A DNA stretch of 64,000 bases from a virus. The stretch's first letter is position 1. Every line of letters starts with the position of its first letter. Of this stretch, positions 11,129 through 58,369 are shown one piece after another. The stretch covers positions 247,669-311,668 of IMG/VR virus record IMGVR_UViG_3300017917_001342, one strand, 5' to 3'. The translations under genes and the position numbers were made by a program. The notes under the pieces are model-generated. The model ran no database searches. It worked only from the letters and a program-made list of their open reading frames with translations, and was not told the DNA's origin.

Positions 11129-13318
11129 TTATTGTGGTACTTCGTCATCCATACCAGCAGTAAGCATGTTAAACGTATAGGTTGTGTCTACGGCATCAAT
11201 ATAGTCTACCAGTGCTGAAAGTTTTTCTTCGGTCATTGATTTACTGTAATAGCTAATACCGTAGTCAATATGCTTGAGCATGGAATATTTCTTACCGATG
11301 AATTCTGCCAGTATCACACGATCGCTGTTGAATGTGGGTTCTTCAACCTTTACGCTAAAGTATCTGCAAAGATCTGTGATCATTGATGTGTTAGACGATC
11401 GCGAACTGCGAAGATGAATTAGATCGCTGAAGAATTTAATAAAATCGCTGTCTTTGTATTTCAAACGCTGTGATAGCGAATGAAACGAACCACCAGTTAG
11501 ATTGTTGACAACTGAACTACCAATGGTTTTTCCAACTACTGTTTCAATTGCAGTGAGTTCAACGTTCTTAGCAATGCTGTTTAGATATTCTGAGTCTGTC
11601 GACAACCGAACAGCATGCGATTTTAGAAAATGTCCAAGGTGTACCCAATGAGCATTGCCTTTGACATTTTCCAAGTTCTTGCCACGAATACCATAGACTT
11701 TGATATTATTGGGAATCAGCTTCAATGTTTTTGCATGTTCCAAAACACGTTGAACGCCACCAACTGATGACGGGTGTTCACGTGTTACAATCACTTCCCA
11801 CCCGTGCATAGGCAAGTAATAACAAATGTTTGTTTCAGACGCGATCACTTCGCTCGCCGGCGTCCAAGCTTTTTTACCACCGTCGACTTTGCAGTTCATC
11901 AGCCAAACTTCTGGCGGCTTAGTTCGAGTCTTCTTTTCCGGTGCAGCAAGTTCGCTGGTCAGCATATACTTGGGATGACCAAGCAGATTCAAAATAGTGT
12001 TCATGTCATCGTTATGCTTGAACACAACAATGTGATTTTTCAACAGTTTGGCAACATGATATTCTTTGACACGAGTGTGACTACCGCGTTTGGTATCATC
12101 AAACATAATAACAGTGTTTTCGGAACAGTTGATATGCGGTTTAAGTGTTGCGTTTGCTGACTTTTTATCAATTGAAAATACACGGACCCCAAGCGAATCG
12201 TTTGAAATTCGATTAGCTGTTGCCAAATCTGCCAGATTAAGAATAAAGCTTTGGCTTTTGATTACTTCACCGCTGTGAACCGGCTTGTCATAGTCGTTAT
12301 AGATTTTGCTAAACACAGAACCAAGGTCTTTGTCGTTAAACACTGCACCGTAGGCCTTACGTGCTTCCCAACGTGTGGGTTTGGATTCAACTGCATCCCA
12401 CAGTGTGTGTTTGAGATCATTAACAACTGAAATCAAACGATTGACAATGTTTGTGCTAGTGCGAGCATCATAGCCAATGCTTTCACGGCTAGCAGCCACT
12501 TCAAGATCGCCGATGTCAAATTCAATAACCAACGGCAATTCGTTCATAGAATAGATAATGTCGATTTGATCCTGTGCAATAGCAGCCAAATCAATGCTAT
12601 AGACATTGATTGGATATAGCACACCGCCCATCAGTGCCTGGAGAGATTCACCGTTCCAAAACCGCTTGCTCCAGATACGCCATCCTTTACCTGTGTAAGC
12701 AGCCGGTGTCATGAGTACATAGCTGATAGCAGTACCAGTTTGCACAGGCTTTTGATCAAACCATTGCAGAACTTCGACGGCTTTTGCTGCCCAGCGATTG
12801 ATATCGCCGTACTTTACGTTGAATTTAACCGTAACACCGCTGTCGCTGCTAAACCCGCTGCCGACTGTTTCTACTCGCGGTGTATCTGTTGCGTCAAAAT
12901 ACATACGGTATTGAGTTGCAATACCTTTGTGCCGGCTGGTAACAAAAAACTCATTGGTATAGCTGAACGGACTCTTGCTGCCAAGTCCAAGCTGACCTAC
13001 GTAGTCATTGCTAGAAGTTTTGGTGCTGGCGAAATACCGAGTGTAGATAGCATGTACATCTGCGTCGCTCATGCCAGTACCGTAATCAGTGATACTAAAC
13101 CACTGTTCGTCAACAGTTGGCAAATGCATTTCCCAGGGATTTGTGTTTTTAGCTGCAACATGACTGTCGCGAGCATTACAGCTCAGTTCTCGAATCACTG
13201 CGCGAATCTTGTCGCTATACAAGCCGTCGCTAAGAATGCGGAAAGCTTTGCCTGTAGCAGCAATAGTAAATGCATCACCTTTGCCGGCAACGGTTGCAAC
13301 GGTATCATTGATCTTCAT
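11129..13318 (-). CDS. rIIA: rIIA-like protein (729 aa; N-terminal GHKL-type ATPase-like region)
   Basis: N-terminus GKGDAFTIAATGKAFRILSDGLYSDKIRAVIRELSCNARDSH and LGLGSKSPFSY match T4 rIIA ([35 protein letters not shown]..., GFGLGSKSPFSY). The size is the same as T4 rIIA. Confidence 0.85.
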   Translation of the reverse strand: MKINDTVATVAGKGDAFTIAATGKAFRILSDGLYSDKIRAVIRELSCNARDSHVAAKNTNPWEMHLPTVDEQWFSITDYGTGMSDADVHAIYTRYFASTKTSSNDYVGQLGLGSKSPFSYTNEFFVTSRHKGIATQYRMYFDATDTPRVETVGSGFSSDSGVTVKFNVKYGDINRWAAKAVEVLQWFDQKPVQTGTAISYVLMTPAAYTGKGWRIWSKRFWNGESLQALMGGVLYPINVYSIDLAAIAQDQIDIIYSMNELPLVIEFDIGDLEVAASRESIGYDARTSTNIVNRLISVVNDLKHTLWDAVESKPTRWEARKAYGAVFNDKDLGSVFSKIYNDYDKPVHSGEVIKSQSFILNLADLATANRISNDSLGVRVFSIDKKSANATLKPHINCSENTVIMFDDTKRGSHTRVKEYHVAKLLKNHIVVFKHNDDMNTILNLLGHPKYMLTSELAAPEKKTRTKPPEVWLMNCKVDGGKKAWTPASEVIASETNICYYLPMHGWEVIVTREHPSSVGGVQRVLEHAKTLKLIPNNIKVYGIRGKNLENVKGNAHWVHLGHFLKSHAVRLSTDSEYLNSIAKNVELTAIETVVGKTIGSSVVNNLTGGSFHSLSQRLKYKDSDFIKFFSDLIHLRSSRSSNTSMITDLCRYFSVKVEEPTFNSDRVILAEFIGKKYSMLKHIDYGISYYSKSMTEEKLSALVDYIDAVDTTYTFNMLTAGMDDEVPQ

Positions 13319-14027: not shown

Positions 14028-14315
14028 TTATTGGTATTCTTCCCAACATTGTTGTTGTTGACCTGCGTAGTAGCCCCACTGATCATATACAGCAACCCAT
14101 CTGCAAACAGTGATTATGCGATATGTTCGAACTGGGGGCTCATAGTAACGCGGTGCTGGCTGGTACCGCGGTTGCTGACTCAGTGCATTGCCGATAATGA
14201 TACCACTAACCAGAGGTAGTACCCAATCATTTCGATGATTATGATTGCCGCCGTCTGCCTGTGCAGCAGTTGCAATACTCAATGCAATTAACAGTGATGT
14301 AATAAATCTACGCAT
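14028..14315 (-). CDS. secreted/periplasmic small protein with signal peptide (MRRFITSLLIALSIATAAQA), Gln/Pro/Tyr-rich
   Basis: Canonical n-h-c signal peptide with an AQA cleavage site. Confidence 0.6.
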   Translation of the reverse strand: MRRFITSLLIALSIATAAQADGGNHNHRNDWVLPLVSGIIIGNALSQQPRYQPAPRYYEPPVRTYRIITVCRWVAVYDQWGYYAGQQQQCWEEYQ

Positions 14316-31562: not shown

Positions 31563-32420
31563 TTACTTTACGCCAATGAACGGAGTAGCTTCGCCCGGGA
31601 TCATAGTAGTAGGCAGTTTGCCATCCCAGACTTCTAGTGCTTTGTACTGCATCAGTTCAGCAGTAAGAGACTCGGCTAGCAGCTTGTTAGCTTTGGCCTG
31701 TGCCTCAGCAACCTTTAGAATACTGTTAGCCTGACCTTCTGCTTCTGCTACTTTTTTCTTAGCTTCTGCTTCTGCTTGTGCAATTTCATTCTGACGTTGC
31801 TGCGCCTTCTGTGTAGAAGCGTTTTTAGCATTGATGCTTGCAACCACATCGTCAGGTAGACGGATTTCGCTTAGCCAAGAAATAGATTCGATCTTAATAC
31901 CGATTGGTGCAACCTGTGCCGCAACATCTTCTTGTACCGCAGCCAACAGTTGTGCTTTGCCTTCGCCGTAGACACTGTCTACAGTACGAGTACTAGCCTG
32001 TTTGTTCAAGCTGTCGCGAACCATGTTGTAAAGGAACGTGTCGGTAATTTCTTCAACACCGCGACGATACTTTTGGAACACAGTGCTGACCTTAGTCGGA
32101 TCAATGCTGTAAGCAATACCAATGTCGGCGTTTGCAATGTTACCATCGCGAGTTTGGAAACTGATGCTTTCGTCGTTTGGTGAACCACAGCTTCCATCGT
32201 CGCCCGCAGTCCAGCAGTAGTTCTGCACAAACGTAGGGAACAGATACAGTTCTTCGTTCCAACCAATCCAATAGCGACCAACACCTAGTTCTTCACTATC
32301 GATACCCTTTTCGCCACCAAGCAAGTAGACTTTAACACCTACGTGACCCGCTGGCACTGTGCTACATGCTGCTAGAGACCCTAGCAGCATGGTAAGCATA
32401 AAACCCTTACGAAAATTCAT
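31563..32420 (-). CDS. SPFH/band-7 (prohibitin/HflC-like) domain lipoprotein
   Basis: Lipobox LLGSLAAC after an N-terminal signal. SPFH core followed by a coiled-coil tail (QAEAEAKKKVAEAEGQ). Confidence 0.65.
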   Translation of the reverse strand: MNFRKGFMLTMLLGSLAACSTVPAGHVGVKVYLLGGEKGIDSEELGVGRYWIGWNEELYLFPTFVQNYCWTAGDDGSCGSPNDESISFQTRDGNIANADIGIAYSIDPTKVSTVFQKYRRGVEEITDTFLYNMVRDSLNKQASTRTVDSVYGEGKAQLLAAVQEDVAAQVAPIGIKIESISWLSEIRLPDDVVASINAKNASTQKAQQRQNEIAQAEAEAKKKVAEAEGQANSILKVAEAQAKANKLLAESLTAELMQYKALEVWDGKLPTTMIPGEATPFIGVK

Positions 32421-35681: not shown

Positions 35682-36518
35682 TCAGACTTCTAACACTAGT
35701 TTCGGATCAAACGCACCCTGTGGACGTTCTTTTGGATAACCTCTGGGATTGCAAACTACTCTGGTATTGCCAATCATGTAATCGTGACTGTCGTGTACAT
35801 GTCCATGTATCCACAGCTTGAGATGATCATGACTGACCATTAACCAATCTAAGTTGCTGACAAATGCACCATTCATATGCAGTTGATGTGCATACTTTGG
35901 ATGAATACTACGAAAGCTCGGTGCATGATGACCTACAACAACAGTGTTGCGCTTGTCTAGTTCAAGTTGTGTTTTTAGCCATTCAACAGTTTTACGATGT
36001 GTATCAGCAGTTACACTCGGTGGTAGTTTATAATACAAATCACCTACATTGTAGGTAATTGATTTATAATCATTCATCATATCCTTAACAACCATTTCAG
36101 TCATAGGATCATAGTTGTTGAGGCTGCTCCAAACTGTTGCACCAAGAAACACGGTATCGTTGATAACCATCTTGTCTTGTTCTAGAAGATGGATGTTACC
36201 GTGCCGAGCAGCTTCTGTACGAAGTATGTCAGCAGTGCGATCCCAACGTCCGCTGTAGTGTTCATGGTTGCCCATCACATAGAGCACAGTGTCAAACTCT
36301 TGACTTACCTGATGAAAAAAGCTTCGATATCTGATAGCATCGTCTGCATACCAGCCCTTTTGAATATAAGTGTAATCAATACCTGCGCTGGGATTTCTAT
36401 GCATGTGTTCTGCAACACAGATGTCGCCTGCAAGTACCAGTACATCTGCACCTGCATTTTCTACTCGTATGTCTTCTGCAAATTCCAAATGCAGGTCACT
36501 GATCAACTGTATTTTCAT
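35682..36518 (-). CDS. calcineurin-like metallophosphoesterase
   Basis: Motifs DLHLE, GDxxD-like (LAGDIC), GNHE, HHAP and GHVH are visible. Confidence 0.75.
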   Translation of the reverse strand: MKIQLISDLHLEFAEDIRVENAGADVLVLAGDICVAEHMHRNPSAGIDYTYIQKGWYADDAIRYRSFFHQVSQEFDTVLYVMGNHEHYSGRWDRTADILRTEAARHGNIHLLEQDKMVINDTVFLGATVWSSLNNYDPMTEMVVKDMMNDYKSITYNVGDLYYKLPPSVTADTHRKTVEWLKTQLELDKRNTVVVGHHAPSFRSIHPKYAHQLHMNGAFVSNLDWLMVSHDHLKLWIHGHVHDSHDYMIGNTRVVCNPRGYPKERPQGAFDPKLVLEV

Positions 36519-36573
36519 TTTTAACTCACTGTGTTAAGACATTAACTTAGCATCATACTGTGTTGATGTAAAG

Positions 36574-37026
36574 TTATCTAGCAGACTTTTTAGATTCCTC
36601 AGAATCGTGTACACGTTTGCGCAGATCGCTGCTGCTGAATCTATGATCTCGCTTGTTGAAATACAGTTGTATTCCGCGACGTCTGCAAATATCTTTGCCA
36701 GTGAAATCTTTGTCTTTGTATTCCACACCTAATATACGAACGTCTATGCGATACATTTCCAATATATCTTCAAGATCTTTTTCTGTAGCATAGGGTATGA
36801 TCTCGTCAACATACTTTACGCCTTTTAACTGTGTGTATCGTTCAACTATGGTTTGTACAGGTGTGTTTTTGTCTTTGCGATCAGCACTGGGATCCGTTTG
36901 CAATGCACAGATAAGATAGTCACACTGTTCTTTAGCTTCTCTTAGCATTTGAACATGTCCGGCATGCAATAGATCAAACGCAGATGCAGTAAATCCAATC
37001 TTTACAGTTTTTGTTATATCGTTCAT
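36574..37026 (-). CDS. cytidylyltransferase-like nucleotidyltransferase (HxGH motif FDLLHAGH)
   Basis: (T/H)xGH signature of the cytidylyltransferase superfamily (TagD / RfaE domain II-like). Confidence 0.65.
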   Translation of the reverse strand: MNDITKTVKIGFTASAFDLLHAGHVQMLREAKEQCDYLICALQTDPSADRKDKNTPVQTIVERYTQLKGVKYVDEIIPYATEKDLEDILEMYRIDVRILGVEYKDKDFTGKDICRRRGIQLYFNKRDHRFSSSDLRKRVHDSEESKKSAR

Positions 37027-37062
37027 TTTTTATCTTTGTTTATAATTGGTTGCACTTAGTAA

Positions 37063-37095
37063 AATGCTGCTGCACATATCGTGTACAGCAGCATT
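37063..37095 (-). terminator. hairpin/terminator immediately 3' of dnaK (10-bp stem AATGCTGCTG / CAGCAGCATT, then TTTTAC on the minus strand)
   Basis: Strong stem 6 nt after the dnaK stop, with a short U-run. Confidence 0.45.
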
Positions 37096-37100
37096 GATTT

Positions 37101-38954
37101 TTACACTGGATCAGCTTTTACATCGATTGGGCCATCATCGGGCGGCGATGATTGCGACTTGTAAATTATTTCACCCATTTTCATTAGGCTGTCACCTAGT
37201 GATTGCAATGCGGACTGCATTTCTTCAACAGTGTCTTTAGACAATGCTTCGCGTGTAGTAACAAGCTTTTCTTCTATTTCACTTTTCAGTTCTGCAGGAA
37301 GTTTGTCTTCATGTTCCTTGAGTTGCTTTTCAGCCTGATGGATCTGTGCTTCGCCTTGGTTACGAGTTTCAATTACAGCACGCTTCTTTTTGTCAGCTTC
37401 GGCATTTTCCTCAGCTTCTTTAACCATGCGATTAATATCGTCCTCGCTAAGGCCGCCGCTGCTTTGAATTGTAACTTTTTGTTCTTTACCAGTTGCTACA
37501 TCTTTTGCGCTTACATTTACGATACCGTTTGCGTCAATGTCAAATGTAACTTCGATCTGCGGAACGCCTCTAGGTGCTGGTGGGATGCCTTCAAGATTAA
37601 ATGTAGCTAGAAGTTTGTTATCACGAGCAAGTTCGCGTTCACCTTGGCAAACCACAATCTGTACACCCGGCTGATTGTCTTGTGCAGTACTAAAGACCTG
37701 ACTCTTCTTAGTAGGAATAGTAGTGTTGCGTTCAATCAGTTTGGTAAACACGCCACCGAGTGTTTCAATGCCCAGGCTAAGAGGTGTAACGTCTAGCAGT
37801 AGAACGTCTTTAACGTCGCCTTGTAGAACGCCACCTTGAATAGCAGCACCCATAGCAACTACTTCATCTGGGTTAACACCCTGACTTGGGTCACGCTTGA
37901 ACAGTTCTTTGACTGTTTGCTGTACCTTAGGCATACGTGTTTGACCACCGACAAGAATTACTTCTGTAATATCTTCTGGCTTTAGCTTAGCATCAGCAAG
38001 TGCTTTACGGCAAGGTTCTTTAGTGCGTTCAACTAGTTTTTCAACTAGACTTTCTAGTTTAGCACGAGTGAGTTTTACAGTAAGGTGCTTAGGACCTTCT
38101 GCCCCTGCGGTAATATATGGCAAGTTGATTTCAGTCTGCGAACTGCTACTAAGTTCAATTTTGGCTTTTTCAGCAGCTTCTTTGAGACGCTGTAGAGCCA
38201 TGCCATCTTTGCGAAGGTCAACACCCTGTTCTTTTTTGAATTCGTCTGCAAGATAATCAACGATCTGCAAGTCGAAATCTTCACCGCCTAGCTGTGTATC
38301 GCCGTTGGTACTGAGAACTTCAAATACACCGTCGCCTAGTTCTAGAATACTGATATCAAATGTACCACCACCGAGGTCATAGACTGCAATCTTGCCACTG
38401 CCCTTTTTGTCAAGACCGTATGCTAGTGCAGCAGCAGTCGGTTCGTTGATAATACGTAGTACTTCTAGTCCGGCAATTTTACCTGCGTCTTTAGTAGCCT
38501 GACGCTGTGCATCGTTAAAGTATGCAGGTACAGTAATAACAGCCTGTGTTACTGCGGTACCGAGATAGCGTTCAGCAGTTTCTTTCATCTTGACAAGAAT
38601 CTTTGCAGATACTTCTGCAGGACTCATTGCTTTGCCGTCAACTGAAACATATGCGTCGCCATTTGGTGCAGCTACAATTTCGTAAGGCAATAGTTTGCTG
38701 TCTTTTTGAACAGATGAATCTGTAAAACTACGACCAATTAGTCGCTTTACAGCATGTAGTGTATTTTTTGGGTTTGTAACGCTTTGACGTTTTGCAGCAG
38801 CACCGACTAGCTGTTCACCGTCTTTTGCAAATGCAACAATACTAGGTGTGGTGCGAGCACCTTCTGAATTTTCAATTACTTTGGCAGTTCCGCCATCCAT
38901 GATACTTACACAACTGTTTGTTGTACCAAGGTCAATACCAATTACTTTGCTCAT
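37101..38954 (-). CDS. dnaK: Hsp70 chaperone DnaK (617 aa)
   Basis: N-terminus [24 protein letters not shown], and a full-length substrate-binding and lid region. GAGGAG Shine-Dalgarno. Confidence 0.95.
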
Positions 38955-39034
38955 TTTATCTCCTCATAAAGCAAGATATGCAACATCTGCCTAAGGCCAG
39001 ACACTGCATGTCTAATATATATATTTTTTCTTAA

Positions 39035-39565
39035 TTAGTCAAGAGTTTGCTCAAGATATTGTGCCAGTTGAAATATATTAAGCTTATCTTCATTTACTTC
39101 TACCCAACCGACAACACTTATGCCTGCTTCTTTAACTGTATCTCTGCTACCACTTACTAGATGATGCCACCAGTGCAAAGGCTTATTGTGTTTCAACAAT
39201 TTATATGCGCAGGTATCTGGCAATAGTCCGGGGGTGTCTATCACGTCTAGCGTAACTTTCATACAGTTACTTACACGCTGTTGACGATTGATATAGTCTG
39301 TGCATTTTGCAGTTTTAACATCAAGCAGTTTACAGGCGATTTTACAACTTTTGACTTCATAGCCTTTCCAAGCTTTTACTAAACAGCAGCGCCCGCACCC
39401 ATCGCAGAGTTCGTCCCACTGCTGCGTTGTCATTGATTCAAGTGGAATAGTTTCCCACCATTTATCAACTGTAGCTGCTAAGGTCGACTGGTCGCATTCT
39501 AACGATCGGTGTTGGTTCTGCTGGTGGTTCGCCTCTGTTGATGCCGTGTACATGTTCCATACCAT
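39035..39565 (-). CDS. ycgN: YcgN/UPF0260-family Fe-S-like small protein (CDGCGRCC motif)
   Basis: WDELCDGCGRCCL and downstream Cys residues match YcgN. The first ~90 nt overlap the PPIase gene out of frame, so the start is uncertain. Confidence 0.6.
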   Translation of the reverse strand: MVWNMYTASTEANHQQNQHRSLECDQSTLAATVDKWWETIPLESMTTQQWDELCDGCGRCCLVKAWKGYEVKSCKIACKLLDVKTAKCTDYINRQQRVSNCMKVTLDVIDTPGLLPDTCAYKLLKHNKPLHWWHHLVSGSRDTVKEAGISVVGWVEVNEDKLNIFQLAQYLEQTLD

Positions 39566-39914
39566 ATATGACTTTGCCCCACACAGTATATTGTCTATCT
39601 AAGAAACGTGCATCACCAAAACAGATAAAAAATTGATCGCTAGCACTGTTTGGATCAGGAGTTCTTGCCATACTGCAAATACCTTCTGTGTGTGGTACAT
39701 CATTAAATTCTGCTACAAGTTGCGGCAATGTTTTTTGTGTCCAACCGCCCTGTGCCATAAAGCCTTCTATAACACGATGAAACACTGTACCATCATAAAG
39801 TCCTTGTTCAGCTTGTGACAAAATCTGTGCAACGTGGTTTGGTGCTTTATCTGGATAGCATTCTATCAAAACTACACCGGCTGGCAAATGCATTTTTAAA
39901 ACTGGATTACTCAA
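39465..39914 (-). CDS. cyclophilin-type peptidyl-prolyl cis-trans isomerase (TTG start)
   Basis: FHRVIEGFMAQGG and WGKVIYGME signatures of cyclophilin. Confidence 0.8.
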   Translation of the reverse strand: MSNPVLKMHLPAGVVLIECYPDKAPNHVAQILSQAEQGLYDGTVFHRVIEGFMAQGGWTQKTLPQLVAEFNDVPHTEGICSMARTPDPNSASDQFFICFGDARFLDRQYTVWGKVIYGMEHVHGINRGEPPAEPTPIVRMRPVDLSSYS

Positions 39915-39974
39915 CGTAATAGATCCTTATAATATAATAATAAGATTATAACTCAAAAGTTTAACATTGCAAAA

Positions 39975-40880
39975 ATGGTAAATAACTCCATGTGTATAAT
40001 AGCTGCAAAATATTTCGATGGTGTCGGCTGGGTCGGTGTAAAAAACCGAGATAGAAATTATATACCGGAGATCAGCTTTAAACGTCAAAAGAAAAATGGC
40101 GTTGAAATCATGTTATTTTGGGATGACATTACACAATATTGCGAAGGTATGAACTCCGGTGGTGTTTGCATATTATCTGCAAGCCTTATGGTGTTAGATG
40201 ACGAAAAAGAAATAACCAAACGTTCTAAAACACCTAGCAAAGATGGCATTAAGATTAAAAAAGCACTGCAATATCCCAATGTCAAAGCCGTTGCAATGAG
40301 TTTAATCAAAAGCAAGCTGACCGGTAACACCATCATTTTTGACAAAGACACCTGTTATCTGTTAGAAGGTGCGTGGCGCAGAGGCGGATATAGCGATAGA
40401 GATTATCGTTATAAAATACACGAAATACCTCGTGACAAGTTTGTTGCTAGAACCAATCACGGTGTATGGATAAAAGATGCAGGGTATCAACGCAATCCAG
40501 AGAATGATGCCGAAACACTCAGTCGTGTAAGCAGCGAAAGTCGCAAGGCAATCGGAGATCATGTTACTAAACGTGCTAATACTCCGGAAGAATTGATAGA
40601 CGGTTTAGCAGGCACATGGACCAATAATCCGCAGTTAAACGGTTTGCGAACTGCTAAAGGCAAAAAGCAAATGCGTACTACAAGTCAAATCATGCTTATA
40701 CCTAGTGAAGATACAATGTTTGTCAGACCAGTTCAAAGTCATATGACTTTTAACTTCTGGGATCTAAATAAACCTGACAATGATCTATGGGTAGAAATAC
40801 TAAGTAACAGAGTATTACATCAGCATAAAAAGGAAGGTGGCGAACCACCGTTCCCTAAAATGAATCATTCTACAAAATAA
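39975..40880 (+). CDS. hypothetical 301-aa protein; Met-Cys near the N-terminus (MVNNSMCIIAAKY) suggests a possible Ntn-hydrolase fold
   Basis: ORF. The function is only a weak guess from the N-terminal Cys. Confidence 0.5.
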   Translation: MVNNSMCIIAAKYFDGVGWVGVKNRDRNYIPEISFKRQKKNGVEIMLFWDDITQYCEGMNSGGVCILSASLMVLDDEKEITKRSKTPSKDGIKIKKALQYPNVKAVAMSLIKSKLTGNTIIFDKDTCYLLEGAWRRGGYSDRDYRYKIHEIPRDKFVARTNHGVWIKDAGYQRNPENDAETLSRVSSESRKAIGDHVTKRANTPEELIDGLAGTWTNNPQLNGLRTAKGKKQMRTTSQIMLIPSEDTMFVRPVQSHMTFNFWDLNKPDNDLWVEILSNRVLHQHKKEGGEPPFPKMNHSTK

Positions 40881-41579
40881 ATGATATCAAATAAAAAAGT
40901 TCTACTATTTGGTGATAGCTTTGCAGATAAAAATTCAGTCGGCGAATATGTGGGCTGGCCTGGTTTGCTAGAAAGCTATTATAAAGTTACAAATTTTGCA
41001 GTTTCTGGATCTAGTCCGGATCATCAATTAAAATTGATGTTGGATTTTATAGAAAACACTGACAGTCACAGCTTCAAAGACACTGTGGTAATATTTTTAA
41101 TATCCAGTCCAAATAGATTTGTTTTCAACTTTTATAAGAATCCGTCTGATCATCATTTATCAATTCATCTAGCTTATTACGAATCTGCAGACCTGTCATA
41201 TCACGATGAATTGTCGCCGTATTTAAAATACAAAAAATTTGTAGAAGATTTTTACAAATATTATGCACTTAATGACGAATTTCAACTTACTCATGTGTTG
41301 AAAATATTAGGTATGCTGAATTTGTATTCAACTCTGTTTGATAAAGTATTAGTTTGGCCTATATTTGAAAATTTGCCGTACAAATTACCAACGATGTCTG
41401 ACAAAATGACATTTGTCAGTACACCGTTATTCAATATAGAGGGTAACCCTTACTGTAATGATGATAAACGACCAAACCATTTAATTAAAGAAAACCATCA
41501 TATTATGGTATCGCAATTAATAGAATGGATAGAAACTAATCGATCAATTGATCTTGATCAGTTCAAATGGACCAAATAA
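40881..41579 (+). CDS. SGNH/GDSL-family hydrolase
   Basis: N-terminal VLLFGDSFAD (GDS-x-x-D block I). Stop and start abut (TAAATG). Confidence 0.65.
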   Translation: MISNKKVLLFGDSFADKNSVGEYVGWPGLLESYYKVTNFAVSGSSPDHQLKLMLDFIENTDSHSFKDTVVIFLISSPNRFVFNFYKNPSDHHLSIHLAYYESADLSYHDELSPYLKYKKFVEDFYKYYALNDEFQLTHVLKILGMLNLYSTLFDKVLVWPIFENLPYKLPTMSDKMTFVSTPLFNIEGNPYCNDDKRPNHLIKENHHIMVSQLIEWIETNRSIDLDQFKWTK

Positions 41580-41597
41580 AGTCTTAAAACTTTGGAT

Positions 41598-41909
41598 TTA
41601 TTCTACAGGTGTAATATCTGCCTGCAACGGAAATCCACTTTGTCTAGCAATTGTAACGGTTTCGTCACGTTTCTGAGATGCAACTTCGTGACTGTAAGTA
41701 CCTGCAATACCTTTGTCATTGTTATGAATGTGCATCATAATATCCTGCGCTTCTTCAAAGGTCTTATGAAAAATTTGCATAAGAACAAGCACAACAAATT
41801 CCATACTGGTTTGATCATCATTGTATAACCAAACATTCCACATTCTAGGTGGGGTAAGTGTAACTTTATCTACTACAGTGACAACAGTGCCTGTTTTAGT
41901 ATTAGCCAA
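41598..41909 (-). CDS. clpS: ATP-dependent Clp protease adaptor ClpS
   Basis: YNDDQTSMEFVVLVLMQIFHKTFEEAQDIMMHIH core conserved in ClpS. Confidence 0.85.
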   Translation of the reverse strand: MANTKTGTVVTVVDKVTLTPPRMWNVWLYNDDQTSMEFVVLVLMQIFHKTFEEAQDIMMHIHNNDKGIAGTYSHEVASQKRDETVTIARQSGFPLQADITPVE

Positions 41910-41974
41910 AATAATCTCCTAAGTTCTTTGTAAGTATGCGGTTGACCGCTAGTGCAGTCAACCGCATGTTAAAT

Positions 41975-42451
41975 TTAGTTGTTGTCTGTACTTACTTTGA
42001 CATCGACGATATTACCGTTTGTAATAGGAATACTACGACCCTTAGCTGGTTCGGGTATTTCTCGCAGTAATTCAATTACCAGTAGACCGTCTTCAAGTTT
42101 AGCAGATACGACTTTAATATGTTCTGCTAGTGTGAATTGTCGCTCAAAATCGCGTGCTGCAATACCACGATGCAGCCAATTGCGTTCTGGTTGGTCTGTG
42201 TTTTTACTGCCTTTGACGCTTAGTATGCGATCATTTGTAATATCGATACTGAGTTCGTCTAACTTAAACCCGGCCACTGCTAGCTCAAGACGATATGTGT
42301 CACCGTCACAGTCTAGGTTGTAAGGTGGGTAACCGTTTGCTTGTGTAACATTGATGTTGTTGATACGTGTAAGCATAGGCTCAAAACCTATAGCAAAACG
42401 ATTTAGATCTCTAAAAAGATCATCGATCATGAGAGATGGTAATTGACGCAT
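41975..42451 (-). CDS. Hsp20/alpha-crystallin family small heat-shock protein (IbpA/B-like)
   Basis: Alpha-crystallin domain (YRLELAVAGFKLDELSIDI ... LLVIEL). AGGAGG Shine-Dalgarno. Confidence 0.85.
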   Translation of the reverse strand: MRQLPSLMIDDLFRDLNRFAIGFEPMLTRINNINVTQANGYPPYNLDCDGDTYRLELAVAGFKLDELSIDITNDRILSVKGSKNTDQPERNWLHRGIAARDFERQFTLAEHIKVVSAKLEDGLLVIELLREIPEPAKGRSIPITNGNIVDVKVSTDNN

Positions 42452-42544
42452 TTATACCTCCTAATATAGCGAAGCACTACCTTAAGTGGGCCTCGAAAGC
42501 GCCCACACTATATATTTAATAACGTGTGAGCGCAAAGTCAAGAG

Positions 42545-43798
42545 TTAGTTGGCAGCTTCTGCGGTTTTATTGTATATTTTCAATGGGTCGCTGCGTTCGT
42601 TAACAACATCTTCTGTAACGACAATCCTACGAATACCTTCGCCGGCCATAGACGGTAGTTCAAATTGCGAACGTAGTAGAATCTTTTCTAAAATACTACG
42701 CAGCCCTCTTGCACCAGTTTTACGTTCCATAGACTGCTTTGCAATTGCACGGAGCGCATCAGTTTGAAATTCAAGGTCAATTCCTTCAATTTTAAACATT
42801 TTTTGGTACTGTTTAACAATTGCGTTCTTTGGTTCGGTGAGAATGTTAACTAGATCGTCTTCTTTGAGATCACAGAATGGTACCATAACTGGAATACGAC
42901 CAATAAGTTCTGGGATAAGTCCGAACTTAATAAGATCTTCCTGCCTAGTTTGTGAGATCAATTCAAACGTATCTTTGTCACTGAGTGACTCACCCGGCAA
43001 CGATGCACCAAAGCCAATGCCAGCACCCTTGTCTAGTCGCTTGCTGATGATATCAGTTAGCCCAACAAATGCACCACCTAGGATGAACAAGATATTCTTT
43101 GTGTTGATTAGAATATATTCACCATGTGGATTTTTACGACCGCCGGTTGGTGGTACTTTGACTTCGCAGCCTTCGATCATTTTAAGCAGTGCTTGCTGAA
43201 CACCTTCACCGCTTACATCGCGTGTAATACTAGTGTTTTCGCTTTTACGGCCTTTTTTGTCAATTTCGTCAATGTACACAATACCACGTTCTGTACGCTC
43301 AACGTCTTGATCAGCAGCTTGATATAGTCGTGCAATAGCTTCTTCAACATCAAGTCCAACATATCCGCTTTCTGTAAGACTGGTAGCATCAATGATAACC
43401 ATTGGAACATCAAGCAGTTTTGCAGCTTGTTGAATGATGTAGGTTTTACCAACACCAGTTGGTCCGATGAACATTAGGTTGGTTTTATCAATCTCAACAT
43501 CGTCAATCACTGGATTGTTGATGCGCTTCATGTGAGAATAGATTGCAACACTCAGCATCATCTTAGCTTGGTGCTGGCCAACCATTCGTTCGTCGAGATA
43601 CGCCATAATTTTATCGGGTGTAAGTACACCAAAATCTTTTGGCTGTTTGACGAATTCTTCTTTAAGAACCCCGTAACATAGTTCTACACATTCGTTACAA
43701 ATGTATACATCGTTACCACTGATCAGCTTATTGACCTCTGTTTGATTCTTACCGCAGAAACTGCAAGAATATGTAGGACGTGAACTATCCCTGGCCAT
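42545..43798 (-). CDS. clpX: ATP-dependent Clp protease ATP-binding subunit ClpX
   Basis: N-terminal C4 zinc finger (CSFCGK ... CNEC), Walker A GPTGVGKT and sensor motifs. Length 417 aa. Confidence 0.95.
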
Positions 43799-43801
43799 AG
43801 A

Positions 43802-45553
43802 TTAATCCTCTGTTTTATTGTTTGCGTGATTTTGTAATCTCTGCTGATGCAGAGTTTTGAGTCTGTTTAAAAATTCAACGGTAGTTTGTGTATCTGTCAC
43901 TATTTGTTCTACTACAGGCAATCTGTCTATCAATTGCCATTCTAATTTGTCGTCTTTTGATACTACTTGGTTGTCGACCTGATTGTCAACAGTGGGAATG
44001 TCATCTTCAACTACAGGTGTGCGAACAATAGGTTCTTCAAAAGACATTTCATATTGTGTAGTATTTTGTTCGGCAACTATAGTTAAATCATTTGATACAC
44101 CATCGAACGATATAGTATGGTTTGATGGTGTTGCTGCTGGTTCAACCACTCTAGTTGTCTCAGTTACAGCAGTAGAACTTAAAACTGTGTTTAGTTTAGA
44201 TATTTCTGTTTGAAGAGTGTTTATAGCCGGTACTAGTTGTTCAATTCCTTGAATTACAACGGGCTCTGTTGTTTTTTCAGGTTGAACACTGTGTTCTTCT
44301 TTGGGTTCAATAAACGGTTGTTCAGCAGTGACTGATTGGATAGGCGGTGCATTTTTATTTTTGCGTAACCCATATTCTGCAAGACCTTGGTTTGCAGCTA
44401 TCAACATTAATATTGCCAAAGGATCAAACACTACAATTATAACAAGTATAACACCGCGAACTGCTTTTTCTAAAAGATTAGTGTCCGGATTATTACCGTA
44501 CATCATTTCAGCGATGTATTTTAGTGGCCCGACTTCTACTTCAAGTTTTCTATATTCAGCTTCTAAACCGAATTTCTGTTCAGTTAGTGTAGCAATTTCT
44601 TTTTCAGCAGCAGCAATTGCAGATTTTTGTTTTTCTATGTCGGCTGCAACTTGACTGTTGTCGGTTGTACCTAACTGTTGCCTTAATCGGTTAATTAATT
44701 CATTTGAGTTGGCAATTTCTTTTTCTGCAATACTACGCAAACGTTGAATCTCTGCACGAGCAGCATCAATTGTAGGCGACGTAATTTTAGCACTTTCTGC
44801 TGCAATTGACTCAGTTAATCGTTGTTTTTCTGCTAGCTGTGCAGTTTTATATGCTTCAATTGCACGTTCTGTTGCAGGACCCAGATTGCCATCTGCCTTG
44901 ACACCTACTAATGCCTGTACTGCTTTGACATTACCTGCTGTGATATTTTCTTCTATGCTTTTGAGATTTTGATCAATTGCAGCAACTTGATCTTTATATA
45001 AATTTGCAGTAGTGCCTAGTCGTTCTTCTTCTTTTGCGATAATAGTGTTTTGTTCATCTATTGCAGGTTGAATGCGACTATATGCACTGTCAATGCGAGT
45101 TTGTTCTCTATCAATTTGTGCTTGTATTTCAGAGTCTTGGTTTACTCCGGCGGTTTCTAATTTTGCAATTTCTTTTTCTGCTTCAGATACAACAGTTTCT
45201 TGACGTTTAATCTGTGTATCTATTTGTTCAAGTCGTGCCACACCTTCTGTTGCTTTAGCTGTTTGGTCGATATGTGCTTTGGACAGATATCCAAAAATAC
45301 CCATACTGGTAATGCACATGAGAATTACCACAGCCGCGCTGAGATATGCTTTCAATGCAAATGGTGTTTTATTCCAGTTATTGTATAACCAACTTGCAAC
45401 AATAACTTTGCTGGCTTCCAATATACCAGCCATGATGATAATAGGTATGAAAGCACCTGCGAAAATGCTTGCCATACCTATTACACTGTAATAACCTGCT
45501 ACAGCACTAAGCCCAATTGCTGCTACAAACATAAGCACGGTTGACAACATCAA
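43802..45553 (-). CDS. membrane-anchored long coiled-coil protein (583 aa; N-terminal TMs, ~250-aa coiled coil, internal TM, Thr/Val-rich C-terminus)
   Basis: Hydrophobic and heptad patterns. Lies 3 nt upstream of clpX. Confidence 0.6.
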   Translation of the reverse strand: MMLSTVLMFVAAIGLSAVAGYYSVIGMASIFAGAFIPIIIMAGILEASKVIVASWLYNNWNKTPFALKAYLSAAVVILMCITSMGIFGYLSKAHIDQTAKATEGVARLEQIDTQIKRQETVVSEAEKEIAKLETAGVNQDSEIQAQIDREQTRIDSAYSRIQPAIDEQNTIIAKEEERLGTTANLYKDQVAAIDQNLKSIEENITAGNVKAVQALVGVKADGNLGPATERAIEAYKTAQLAEKQRLTESIAAESAKITSPTIDAARAEIQRLRSIAEKEIANSNELINRLRQQLGTTDNSQVAADIEKQKSAIAAAEKEIATLTEQKFGLEAEYRKLEVEVGPLKYIAEMMYGNNPDTNLLEKAVRGVILVIIVVFDPLAILMLIAANQGLAEYGLRKNKNAPPIQSVTAEQPFIEPKEEHSVQPEKTTEPVVIQGIEQLVPAINTLQTEISKLNTVLSSTAVTETTRVVEPAATPSNHTISFDGVSNDLTIVAEQNTTQYEMSFEEPIVRTPVVEDDIPTVDNQVDNQVVSKDDKLEWQLIDRLPVVEQIVTDTQTTVEFLNRLKTLHQQRLQNHANNKTED

Positions 45554-45609
45554 ATATCCCTCACGACAATTAACTATTGTACCGAATAACTGCTATTTGT
45601 CAACGACTA

Positions 45610-46767
45610 TTAGGCGTTAGCTATTTGAGTAACTGCTATATTTCCTTCAACTGTTTGTATGTTTGCAACTGTATCAATAGCAGCCGCAGTAACCTGTTGC
45701 ACCACTGTTTGTACTGGTGTATATGCAACATTACTGCCGCCTATTACCACATTGCTGTTCCAAATGTTTCTGTTGGTAATCCAAGTGCTAGTTAATGCTC
45801 TAGCGATTAAACGCTTGAGCGCCGCAGGACCTACTAACTCTGTGTTTACGGTTTCCGGCTCCCCTGCAACTGTGCGAGTAACTAGCTGATCAATGTGTTC
45901 GATACCAACAGTCCATGCTACTGTGGTTGGCGGTGCATTACCAGATACTGTTGATCCGGTAAGTGCAATCGCACCGTAGACTGTGGCTGTTAAATTGCTT
46001 TCAATATAACTTGCAACACCTGTCCAACGCATATTACCACGTTCAATGTCCTTTGCCTGTGCAAAGGTCATGTTTGGTATATAAACTGTGCTTGCTGCAA
46101 ATCCAATATCGGATGCTGCACTGCCAGTGTCTGCGCCAAAATAGATAGGTGACAAGCTTTGACTATTAAGCTGAATCTTGTTTGTATATGGTGTTGCATA
46201 TACACCAGTCTGTTCACTTACTGCATTTATGGTATTGCATACGCCTGCTAGTGTTAATGCACCAGTGACAAAAGTAATTGTCACACCGTTGATAACAATA
46301 GTTTCAGCGTTGGACGGGCTACTAAATGATCCACCATAGATTGGACTTTGGTATGTAAATGCACCAACTGGTAAACCTATTGTAGTTAAAGGTGTACCCG
46401 AGACGTTTGCAAGTACAATTGGCAATGTGCTTTGTGGCCATGCACTTTGTAATGTAATGTAGTTTGTTGCAGTTATAGATGCCATTACATTTGTATACTG
46501 GCTCATTAAATTAAAACGGTCTACAATGTCACTTACAGTGTCGCCAGAGTCAAATGGTCCTATAATATAACCGTTGCAACTCAATGTATCACCTGTTGTC
46601 ATTGTAGGCGATGCGTTGTAACTGGATACCGCAACCATTGTGTGATATTGGTTACTGGTGTACGGTGATATACCACCAGCAGTAGTATCTGAACCTGTAT
46701 AATTTGTTGGACTATTAAGAGTCCATGTTACCCTGTAGTAAGTCGGTGTTGGTTTAAAAGTGGCCAT
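45610..46767 (-). CDS. hypothetical Thr/Ser/Gly-rich probable virion structural protein (385 aa)
   Basis: Composition typical of phage fibre or decoration proteins. No motif. Confidence 0.5.
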   Translation of the reverse strand: MATFKPTPTYYRVTWTLNSPTNYTGSDTTAGGISPYTSNQYHTMVAVSSYNASPTMTTGDTLSCNGYIIGPFDSGDTVSDIVDRFNLMSQYTNVMASITATNYITLQSAWPQSTLPIVLANVSGTPLTTIGLPVGAFTYQSPIYGGSFSSPSNAETIVINGVTITFVTGALTLAGVCNTINAVSEQTGVYATPYTNKIQLNSQSLSPIYFGADTGSAASDIGFAASTVYIPNMTFAQAKDIERGNMRWTGVASYIESNLTATVYGAIALTGSTVSGNAPPTTVAWTVGIEHIDQLVTRTVAGEPETVNTELVGPAALKRLIARALTSTWITNRNIWNSNVVIGGSNVAYTPVQTVVQQVTAAAIDTVANIQTVEGNIAVTQIANA

Positions 46768-46845
46768 CTAATGATTCTCCGGGCTATGCTTGGAATATTT
46801 AGTCAAAATGACTGTACAGATACCAAATCAATAAATATCGAGTAG

Positions 46846-46874
46846 TTGCATATTTGCACTACATAGATTATAAT
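46846..46874 (+). promoter_or_regulatory. strong sigma70-type promoter (TTGCAT, 17-nt spacer, TATAAT) for the queD-like gene
   Basis: Perfect -10, 5/6 -35 and exact 17-nt spacing, about 85 nt upstream of the ATG. Confidence 0.55.
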
Positions 46875-46959
46875 TTCTTTATAAGGCAAAGTGGTCTAAG
46901 ACGCTCATCCCACTCTAAATACTCTGCGTGTCGTCAAACTTACTTATGAAAGGCAAGAG

Positions 46960-47475
46960 ATGACAAAATACGAACCAGTACATTACAAGTACACCAGCAC
47001 CAAAGAATACCACGACGCATTTCCCTGTGCTTATCGACAGTGGCGTGCAGACAGTCATTGTAATCTAATTCATGGTTACAGTTTTAACATGAAATTTTAC
47101 TTCGGTACCAATGATCTTGATGCTCGTAATTGGGCTGCTGATTATGGTGGACTAAAAGAACTAAAACGTTTCTTAGAAGATCAATTTGACCACACTCTGC
47201 TGGTTGCACAAGACGATCCAGAATTTGAATTCTACAAAGAAATGGAACGTCGTAAGCTGGCAAAACTCACTGTATTACCAAAACTAGGTTGTGAAGGTCT
47301 AGCAGACACACTTTACAAATATGTAAACGGTGTTTACATTCCAGACATGTGGGGTCCAGGCGAAGCTGCAAGACTGTGGTGTTACAGAGTCGAAGTTCGA
47401 GAAACACAAAGCAATATGGCTTTCCGCGAAGGTCATAGAGAATGGGAAGAAGATCTTTTTGCAGATTACAAGTAA
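46960..47475 (+). CDS. queD: 6-pyruvoyl-tetrahydropterin synthase / QueD-family protein
   Basis: C-x5-HGH zinc motif (SHCNLIHGYSF) and a size typical of PTPS/QueD. Confidence 0.7.
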   Translation: MTKYEPVHYKYTSTKEYHDAFPCAYRQWRADSHCNLIHGYSFNMKFYFGTNDLDARNWAADYGGLKELKRFLEDQFDHTLLVAQDDPEFEFYKEMERRKLAKLTVLPKLGCEGLADTLYKYVNGVYIPDMWGPGEAARLWCYRVEVRETQSNMAFREGHREWEEDLFADYK

Positions 47476-57676: not shown

Positions 57677-58369
57677 TTACTTGCGTTGTCCGAGCAGCTT
57701 GAGCAAGTACAACATTAGGTTTACAAAGTCTAGGTATAGACTCAATGCACCCATGATACCAGCTTTTGCACGTTCTTCGCCACTGGTAAGGTAATAGACT
57801 TCTTTGACTTTCTGTGTGTCATATGCAGTCAACCCCACAAAGATCAACACACCGATTACACTGATCGCAAAGTCAAATGCAGCACTTTGCATAAAAAGGT
57901 TGACAATGCTTGCTACGATCAATCCGATTAGACCCATTAGCAGGAACCCACCAAGACTGGTTAGATCCTTTTTAGTAGTATAACCGTAGATACTCATAGA
58001 AAGAAACATCACAGCAGTAATACCAAATACTTGGAATACAGATCCCAGTTGGTACATAAGGAACACTGTGCTAAGGCTAACGCCCATAACAGCAGCGTAT
58101 GCATAGAACATTGTTTGTAGTGCAGATGCACTAAACTTTTCAAATCCAAAGCTCATCACCAGCACCATTGCCAACGGTGCAAAGACAAACAGGAATGCCT
58201 GCGGTCCGCCTAGGAACAGTGCGGTAAGTTCCGGCACAGTTGCAACTAGATACGCAACAACACCGCTGACTACAAGACCAATGCCCATGTTGTTGTAAAC
58301 ACTGAGCATATGTTCACGCAACCCGTTATCAATTACAGCAGTTGCAGTATGACCATTTAGTTTTTCCAT
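57677..58369 (-). CDS. yccA: BAX-inhibitor-1 / YccA-family membrane protein (putative FtsH modulator)
   Basis: Seven predicted TM helices with the family-typical N-terminal cytoplasmic segment. A candidate sigma70 promoter (TTGTAA, 17-nt spacer, TATATT) lies upstream at about 58400-58435. Confidence 0.7.
   Translation of the reverse strand: MEKLNGHTATAVIDNGLREHMLSVYNNMGIGLVVSGVVAYLVATVPELTALFLGGPQAFLFVFAPLAMVLVMSFGFEKFSASALQTMFYAYAAVMGVSLSTVFLMYQLGSVFQVFGITAVMFLSMSIYGYTTKKDLTSLGGFLLMGLIGLIVASIVNLFMQSAAFDFAISVIGVLIFVGLTAYDTQKVKEVYYLTSGEERAKAGIMGALSLYLDFVNLMLYLLKLLGQRK

Follow-up and report, generated by a model that had tools for sequence, protein, structure and literature searches.

Genes of the Clp and chaperone families have been reported from several groups of jumbo phages. 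Iyer et al. found ClpS, ClpX, ClpA, ClpP, Hsp20, and DnaJ in such phages, and proposed that the phage ClpS feeds the ClpAP protease of the host (PMC7824862). Seven Clp-family genes were described by Attai et al. in the Agrobacterium phage Atu_ph07, in which clpX lies beside a topoisomerase gene and which was reported to encode ClpB and DnaJ (PMC6102473). In the phage AP-J-162, clpX adjoins IF-3 and a topoisomerase gene (PMC11242549). Phage G packages ClpX and ClpP (PMC12484599), and the moraphages encode DnaK, DnaJ, and Hsp20 (PMC12619734). Here, we analyzed a 64-kb stretch of viral DNA (positions 247,669 to 311,668 of the IMG/VR record IMGVR_UViG_3300017917_001342, hereafter 'the window'), in which genes for ClpX, ClpS, Hsp20, a cyclophilin, a YcgN-like protein, and DnaK are grouped in the region between 37 and 46 kb. 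Each of ClpX, ClpS, Hsp20, DnaK, IF-3, and bS21 is already known from jumbo phages, and no new category is opened here. The modest new point is that one array is conserved in 84 divergent phage loci, together with a version in Atu_ph07 that has no membrane protein. We consider it probable that the region is the local form of a vertically inherited host-takeover array, which belongs to a large and mostly uncultivated T4-related lineage of jumbo phages and megaphages.

A conserved array in a lineage of large phages

The source of the window is a T4-related jumbo phage. Both subunits of a T4-type topoisomerase II are encoded within the window (Pfam scan), one of its open reading frames (ORFs) matches the Gp23 capsid family in Pfam, and its relatives are found in IMG/VR; therefore, the element is a phage, as had been assumed in an earlier reading of the sequence made without database searches (the sequence-only reading). 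The membrane protein encoded in the region has a 100% identical counterpart on one JGI contig, 518,643 bp long, so that the window represents approximately 12% of a megaphage genome. Logan contigs of 8-15 kb, identical to the window, extend approximately 4 kb beyond its right end. Megablast analysis of a phage collection revealed no near relative, the sole match being a short one (72.6%) inside dnaK.

A ClpX-anchored scan of IMG/VR yielded 80 contigs with ClpX identities of 48-85%. These were combined with the window, two Logan contigs, and the Salicola phage SCTP-2 into a set of 84 loci, the ORFs of which were clustered, with the IF-3 and bS21 families being assigned by Pfam. The canonical gene order was membrane protein, ClpX, IF-3, bS21, Hsp20, and ClpS, sometimes with a gene of ~140 amino acids (aa) following that of the membrane protein and a ~80-aa gene preceding that of Hsp20. 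The membrane protein was present in 78 of the 84 loci, Hsp20 in 73, ClpS in 71, bS21 in 67, IF-3 in 49, and DnaK in only eight. Given that the core of the cluster is syntenic across 84 independent phage loci, the grouping is not due to chance. The sequence-only reading had regarded the pairing of ClpX with ClpS as unusual; instead, it belongs to an order that is conserved in this set (71 loci with ClpS), including SCTP-2, and that is also found in Atu_ph07. We found no description of the array as one conserved unit in the open-access literature text, where its genes are listed individually.

Two cultured phages show how this array compares with described genomes. Genes 197-192 of SCTP-2 encode, on one strand, topoisomerase II, gp52, a homologue of the membrane protein, ClpX, a bS21-family protein, and ClpS; however, the ClpX is only 35% identical, and the SCTP-2 array includes neither Hsp20 nor DnaK. 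In Atu_ph07, the genes for ClpX, IF-3, several other proteins, Hsp20, thymidine kinase, and ClpS follow one another on one strand across the circular origin, beside a T4-type topoisomerase II. Compared with Atu_ph07, the window is without IF-3 and bS21 and has DnaK, the cyclophilin, and YcgN in addition. Atu_ph07 and the Sinorhizobium phages Phosso and AP-J-162, which are Polybotosvirus-like, infect Alphaproteobacteria, in agreement with the affinity of the window DnaK described below. They differ from the window in that Atu_ph07 and Phosso both code for ClpP and ClpA, and neither phage is among the DnaK matches.

In most of the relatives numbered L004-L082, IF-3 and bS21 genes stand between those for ClpX and Hsp20 (for example, L049:11253-11795 and L004:5991-6260). 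The window contains no match to either family, and the closest relatives (L001-L003) are likewise without both. DnaK is limited to a sub-clade, often accompanied by the cyclophilin and sometimes by YcgN. Judging from this gene content, the sublineage of the window has lost IF-3 and bS21 and has acquired, downstream, a cyclophilin, YcgN, and a DnaK of alphaproteobacterial type. Thus, one sublineage has put a DnaK without an adjacent DnaJ in the place of translation genes, whereas cellular dnaK operons keep dnaJ.

Two marine relatives, L076 (14622-16298, 18736-19341) and L023, have three small hydrophobic proteins inserted between Hsp20 and ClpS. Both encode a true ClpP, 62% identical to that of E. 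coli, approximately 2 kb after ClpS, and they are the only relatives with ClpP near the array.

Gene content of the region

The region comprises eight genes, namely six chaperone and Clp genes on the minus strand and two plus-strand genes between those for the cyclophilin and ClpS; the coordinates of these and other features are listed in Table 1. The sequence-only reading had described six co-oriented genes in 6.7 kb. Their common orientation is correct, but the block is not contiguous, being interrupted by the plus-strand genes at 39975-40880 and 40881-41579. All six family assignments (DnaK, YcgN, cyclophilin, ClpS, Hsp20, and ClpX) were upheld by profile searches against Pfam and NCBIfam, with the caveat that the NCBIfam match of YcgN, while strong, lies under the curated cut-off. 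The coordinates given in the sequence-only reading were correct as well; its interpretation is supported only in part.

Table 1. Positions of genes and other features in the 64-kb window
Feature	Position	Strand	Basis or remark
Collagen protein, 973 aa	643-3564	+	Eight collagen triple-helix repeat stretches, E 7.8e-65
1,735-aa protein	3764-8971	+	Comes after the 973-aa collagen protein; no family match
729-aa protein	11129-13318	-	GHKL-type ATPase domain match only (HATPase_c_3, E 1.9e-6)
SPFH/Band 7 protein, outside the array	31563..32420	-	Pfam, E 9.8e-29
Terminator-like hairpin right after the dnaK stop codon	37063..37095	-	Perfect 14-bp stem, dG -22.7 kcal/mol
DnaK/Hsp70, full-length, alphaproteobacterial type	37101..38954	-	Pfam HSP70, NCBIfam DnaK equivalogs
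Terminator-like hairpin with T tail between ycgN and dnaK	38978..39009	-	Located just upstream of dnaK
YcgN-family cysteine-cluster protein, start uncertain	39035..39565	-	NCBIfam YcgN models, below cut-offs
Cyclophilin-type peptidyl-prolyl isomerase, TTG start	39465..39914	-	Pfam Pro_isomerase
Cys-Ntn-hydrolase-fold protein, N-terminus Met-Cys	39990..40880 (ORF also given as 39975-40880)	+	Predicted fold
Inserted gene, weakly GDSL/SGNH-hydrolase-like	40881..41579	+	Profile search
ClpS N-degron adaptor, TTG start, 22-residue N-terminal extension	41598..41909	-	Pfam ClpS, motifs
IbpA-like small heat-shock protein Hsp20, C-terminal I-P-I motif	41975..42451	-	Pfam HSP20
Structured clpX-hsp20 intergenic region	42452..42544	-	dG -34.8, z -3.49
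ClpX unfoldase	42545..43798	-	NCBIfam equivalogs; Zn finger, Walker A/B, GYVG, IGF, RKN replacing RKH
Membrane protein (MEM), 583 aa, four transmembrane helices	43802..45553	-	ORF, hydropathy, AlphaFold2 model
Candidate sigma70-like promoter, TTGACA-16-TACAAT (11/12)	45576..45603	-	Consensus match upstream of the membrane-protein gene
Ser/Thr-rich protein, 385 aa	45610-46767	-	Weak flagellin IN-motif match
BI-1/YccA-family membrane protein, outside the array	57677..58369	-	Pfam Bax1-I

ClpX and ClpS

The ClpX of the window is 54.6% identical to that of E. coli and passes two NCBIfam equivalog models (NF003745, 550.8 bits against a cut-off of 359; TIGR00382, 519.5 bits against 370.75). By Pfam, it consists of an N-terminal C4 zinc finger, AAA_2, and D2-small. 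The ClpP-docking tripeptide reads IGF in 70 of the 84 phage copies, including that of the window, MGF in 12, and VGF and IGY in one each. The zinc-finger cysteines, the Walker A core (GxxGxGKT), Walker B, GYVG, the arginine finger, and sensor II are conserved at ~98-100% among the same copies, and in the window RKN stands where RKH is usual. With these features, it looks like a canonical, partner-dependent ClpX that should act with a ClpP, on the ring of which it would dock via the IGF loop.

ClpS scores well above the Pfam gathering threshold (E 1.1e-27, 96 bits against a cut-off of 23), and under the cut-off of every NCBIfam ClpS equivalog model. Residues N34, D35, T38, H66, and K84 are invariant in all 71 phage copies and are the same in the window. 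E79, also found in the window, is present in 70 of the copies, and the N-terminal extension has a median length of 22 residues, as in the window. Based on work with E. coli ClpS, we take N34, D35, T38, and H66 to form the N-degron pocket and E79 and K84 to be the contacts with the N-domain of ClpA. The retention of both groups of residues bears out the earlier assignment as an adaptor of the ClpA type. The protein thus looks like an ordinary partner-dependent adaptor, which would bind N-degron substrates together with the N-domain of a ClpA-type unfoldase.

It may instead be supposed that ClpS and ClpX are a new direct adaptor-unfoldase pair, in which N-degron substrates are brought to ClpX, given that 71 of the 84 loci have both genes in one array. 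We find this extremely improbable, because ClpS keeps its ClpA contacts (E79 in 70/71 copies and K84 in 71/71), ClpX has an ordinary zinc-finger N-domain and no Clp_N domain, as many as five unrelated genes separate the two in the array, and the cultured jumbo phages with a ClpS match are mostly listed with a ClpA of their own. Since the docking and contact motifs are retained in both proteins, they look like canonical partner-dependent proteins and not a new ClpX-ClpS pair. The strong constraint on these motifs points to ClpP and ClpA as the partners to be expected.

The membrane protein upstream of ClpX

As noted in the sequence-only reading, the gene for a 583-aa membrane protein ends 3 nucleotides (nt) before the clpX ATG. 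Conservation and hydropathy indicate three N-terminal transmembrane helices, which bear a highly conserved motif. These are followed by a long and variable helical hairpin, which in the window includes a peptidoglycan-binding-like motif, and then by a conserved segment and a fourth transmembrane helix. The protein weakly matches PG_binding_3 in Pfam. Its C-terminal tail, which is poorly conserved, is disordered up to its last part, where a single confident helix is formed in the AlphaFold2 model; the model is otherwise mostly coiled coil (pTM 0.36). More than 7,600 metagenomic homologues were found, a few of which are labeled peptidoglycan-binding or lysozyme-like by JGI.

The sequence-only reading had suggested that this protein could be a dedicated partner or substrate of ClpX. 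In a stronger form of this idea, ClpX would be a ClpP-free, membrane-associated unfoldase or remodeller that is tethered by the upstream membrane protein or acts on it, for example in the control of envelope or lysis functions, or in DNA replication near the topoisomerase genes. MuA is remodelled by ClpX without ClpP, which provides a precedent. Of the 84 loci, 78 have the membrane protein upstream of ClpX, 39 of them with a gap of 60 nt or less, and the modeled cytoplasmic tail, predicted to be disordered and to end in a confident helix, might serve as a contact; in addition, both SCTP-2 and Atu_ph07 have clpX next to genes for topoisomerase II. However, an IGF-type loop (including its MGF, VGF, and IGY forms) is found in all 84 ClpX copies, which favors docking on ClpP. 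A homologue of the membrane protein in the Pelagibacter phage Mosig has a glucosaminidase as its neighbor and no ClpX less than 7 kb away, and the array of Atu_ph07 has no homologue of it upstream of ClpX. Furthermore, the ~140-aa gene (fam9) splits the membrane protein from ClpX in 24 loci, and the tail shows poor conservation. A ClpP-free role of this kind therefore seems very unlikely to us. Given its occurrence apart from ClpX in Mosig and the array without it in Atu_ph07, the membrane protein looks like an envelope protein that shares a transcription unit with ClpX and not like a dedicated ClpX partner, although it might tether ClpX.

DnaK and Hsp20

The window DnaK covers residues 4-598 of its length in the Pfam HSP70 match (E 2.6e-271) and passes two NCBIfam equivalog models (NF001413, 1019 bits against a cut-off of 648; TIGR02350, 967.7 bits against 822.55). 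It is full-length, with the nucleotide-binding domain, linker, substrate-binding domain, and lid all present. K70, E171, D194, T199, D201, and the VLLLD linker are as in E. coli, as are R167, N170, and T173, which were scored as J-domain contacts; D481 is replaced by N. These residues point to a DnaK of the ordinary kind, which would depend on a J-protein and a nucleotide-exchange factor. The closest cellular relatives are exclusively alphaproteobacterial (69-73% identity, against 65.6% for E. coli). In these relatives, dnaJ lies directly 3' of dnaK, whereas the phage dnaK has no adjacent dnaJ.

Hsp20 has an alpha-crystallin domain above the Pfam HSP20 threshold (E 4.8e-17, 62.4 bits against a cut-off of 20.8), and its C-terminal I-x-I motif is present (...RSIPITNG...). 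Its match to the NCBIfam IbpA model (E 1.4e-35) scored 122 bits, under the equivalog cut-off of 212, so that it is IbpA-like but not an IbpA equivalog. It would hold unfolding proteins for DnaK.

The window ClpX, ClpS, DnaK, and IbpA-type small heat-shock protein thus keep the defining motifs of E. coli ClpXP, ClpAPS, and DnaK-DnaJ-GrpE with IbpA/B. In contrast to the adjacent pairs clpP-clpX, clpS-clpA, and dnaK-dnaJ of bacteria, each of the window genes stands without its pair partner nearby. Among phages, the Lak megaphages, the huge phages of Al-Shayeb et al., and the moraphages similarly have full-length Hsp70 genes, some of them with Hsp20 (PMC12619734). However, most of these phages carry DnaJ, often adjoining dnaK, and the moraphage DnaK is of Flavobacteriales origin, whereas that of the window is alphaproteobacterial in type.

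Where the partner proteins may come from

The sequence-only reading had stated that no ClpP, DnaJ, or GrpE was recognizable in the window, and all of our searches agree with this. ClpP, DnaJ, GrpE, ClpA, and Lon were not found in the 64 kb by tblastn with the E. coli proteins, by phmmer (--max) against all six-frame ORFs together with a scan for the HPD motif, or by Pfam analysis of the other 71 window ORFs. A weak DnaJ match at 14028-14315 has no HPD motif and was rejected as a J-domain. Likewise, ClpP, ClpA, DnaJ, and GrpE are absent from the approximately 4 kb that the Logan contigs add past the right end of the window.

These results could mean that the whole genome is without ClpP, ClpA, DnaJ, and GrpE, and that its ClpX, ClpS, and DnaK hijack the partners of the host and re-target proteolysis and folding. 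Partners are absent from the window and its extension, and almost all metagenomic relatives likewise show none within 10 kb of the array. The conserved IGF loop and ClpA-contact residues imply that partners are needed. A host DnaJ could serve the phage DnaK, given its 69-73% identity to the alphaproteobacterial protein and its retained J-domain contacts, and the dnaJ that directly follows dnaK in cellular relatives does not do so in the phage. The proposal of Iyer et al. that phage ClpS works with host ClpAP is also in line with this (PMC7824862). Should the whole genome indeed be without ClpP and the co-chaperones, the phage would provide a clean natural example of a virus that supplies only those parts of the host proteostasis machinery that select substrates.

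However, only approximately 12% of the genome has been seen, and in cultured relatives the partner genes lie far away. The distance between the genes for ClpP and ClpX is approximately 80 kb in SCTP-2 (in which ClpP is gene 122), 22-27 kb in Atu_ph07, and 350 kb in Phosso, and the latter two phages also encode ClpA. A DnaJ is shown by most of the listed records of DnaK-encoding megaphages, namely the Lak phages, LR745206, LR756501, LR756502, and LR756503. Its gene adjoins dnaK in some of the Lak phages, lies ~10-12 kb from it in LR756502 and LR745206, and ~155 kb from it in LR756501 and LR756503. Thus, the earlier statement that ClpX and ClpS are paired here 'without ClpA or ClpP' goes beyond what this portion of the genome and the distant ClpP genes of cultured relatives allow. 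The precedent of the relatives argues against an absence of the four partners from the whole genome, and we regard a genome-wide lack as possible but rather unlikely. That the phage components would plug into host partners is in itself plausible.

We therefore return to the vertically inherited array, for which the partners would come either from the host, which is probably an alphaproteobacterium, or from elsewhere in the ~518-kb genome, as in cultured relatives. The data show which genes are present, that their motifs are retained, that their order is conserved, and that the 64 kb contain no partners; the partners themselves, the timing, and the purpose are inferred. The likely purpose would be phage control of translation output, protein folding, and protein turnover in the course of a long, protein-heavy infection. 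Several points weigh against this interpretation. The status of the phage's own ClpP, ClpA, DnaJ, and GrpE can be assessed only within the ~12% of the genome covered by the window. ClpP occurs within 10 kb of ClpX in one of the 82 metagenomic relatives (L076), and the L023 contig has it just outside the 10-kb flank. Among the matches listed in scans with a phage ClpP and with a ClpP alignment, these were the only two contigs common to the ClpX and ClpP sets, and the IMG/VR scans with ClpP and DnaJ alignments gave, again among the matches listed, no further contig in common with the ClpX set. DnaJ and GrpE were not found within 10 kb of DnaK in five contigs of the clade from a DnaK-anchored set. 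Finally, gene order that is kept in phages of conservative genome architecture is no proof of functional coupling.

A more far-reaching possibility is that the array is a single takeover operon that couples the control of translation initiation to protein triage, as a hallmark of a very large and mostly uncultivated aquatic and soil lineage of jumbo phages and megaphages. The membrane protein would then localize ClpX at the inner membrane, and the sublineage of the window would have swapped IF-3 and bS21 for DnaK, the cyclophilin, and YcgN, running on host co-chaperones. We consider this whole picture doubtful.

Transcription signals

The candidate sigma70-like promoter upstream of the membrane-protein gene is a possible start of the array transcript, although the overall number of sigma70-like sites was not above the shuffled expectation. 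The sequence-only reading had proposed a check for the use of sigma32-type promoters; at the sequence level, no sigma32-like promoter was found upstream of dnaK, hsp20, or clpX. The hairpin after dnaK, described previously as strong, was confirmed as a perfect stem and differs clearly from shuffled sequences (z -4.95). Because dnaK is flanked by this hairpin and by an upstream one with a T tail, it may form its own transcription unit, which suggests that it is transcribed apart from the ClpX-ClpS array. The leader of hsp20 contains two stable hairpins, the second of which partly covers the hsp20 Shine-Dalgarno sequence, and these could act as an RNA thermometer. An Rfam search of positions 36500-47000 gave no match, including none to ROSE-type thermometers.

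Neighboring genes

The ~296-aa protein encoded divergently from clpS (39990-40880) had no match in Pfam, PHROG, or NCBIfam, and its AlphaFold2 model was confident (pLDDT 85.9, pTM 0.88). The fold matches those of Cys-Ntn hydrolases, including acyl-CoA:isopenicillin N acyltransferase, bile-salt hydrolases, penicillin V acylase, and C69 dipeptidase. The protein begins with Met-Cys, the cysteine is invariant, and 505 metagenomic homologues were found; the gene is conserved divergently beside ClpS in 15 loci. A role as a protease that generates N-degrons was considered and rejected, as the fold is that of amidohydrolases and acyltransferases (C45, bile-salt-hydrolase, and C69 types). The adjoining gene at 40881-41579 is present only in the window and L002 among the ClpX-anchored loci.

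The cyclophilin exceeds the Pfam Pro_isomerase cut-off (E 2.1e-34, 119.5 bits against 21.7) and falls short of the PpiA and PpiB equivalog cut-offs in NCBIfam. The YcgN-like protein gave no match in a Pfam search; its best NCBIfam YcgN match had an E-value of 2.2e-41 and 141 bits (cut-off 167), and the CxxCxxCC motif is present. In its longest form, the ycgN ORF shares 100 nt (39465-39565) with the 3' end of the cyclophilin gene. The homology starts near 39469, approximately 12 codons upstream of an internal ATG at 39433, with no evident start codon there. We know of no established chaperone role for the YcgN family.

Outside the array, the gene at 57677-58369 had been named as a YccA/BI-1 modulator of FtsH. 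Its membership in this family is secure, with a Bax1-I domain far above the threshold (E 1.1e-59, 202.1 bits against 34.1), and a modulation of FtsH would be by analogy with E. coli YccA. This protein and the SPFH/Band 7 protein are related to the array in theme. In E. coli, the SPFH/Band 7 (HflK/C, QmcA) and BI-1 (YccA) families are both tied to FtsH, a membrane protease for which no gene was seen in the window.

The gene for the 385-aa Ser/Thr-rich protein stands before that of the membrane protein in 24 loci. The 729-aa protein is not recognizable as an Hsp90, HATPase_c_3 being its sole match. Sequence searches of the PDB with the membrane protein, a 301-aa protein, and the 729-aa ATPase-like protein gave no match for any of the three. 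The window also codes for a CCA-adding enzyme, an RNA ligase, and a tRNA-Met, which, like the collagen-repeat protein, are further marks of a T4-related jumbo phage. The 973-aa collagen-repeat protein and the 1,735-aa protein that follows it are probably fibre or structural proteins.

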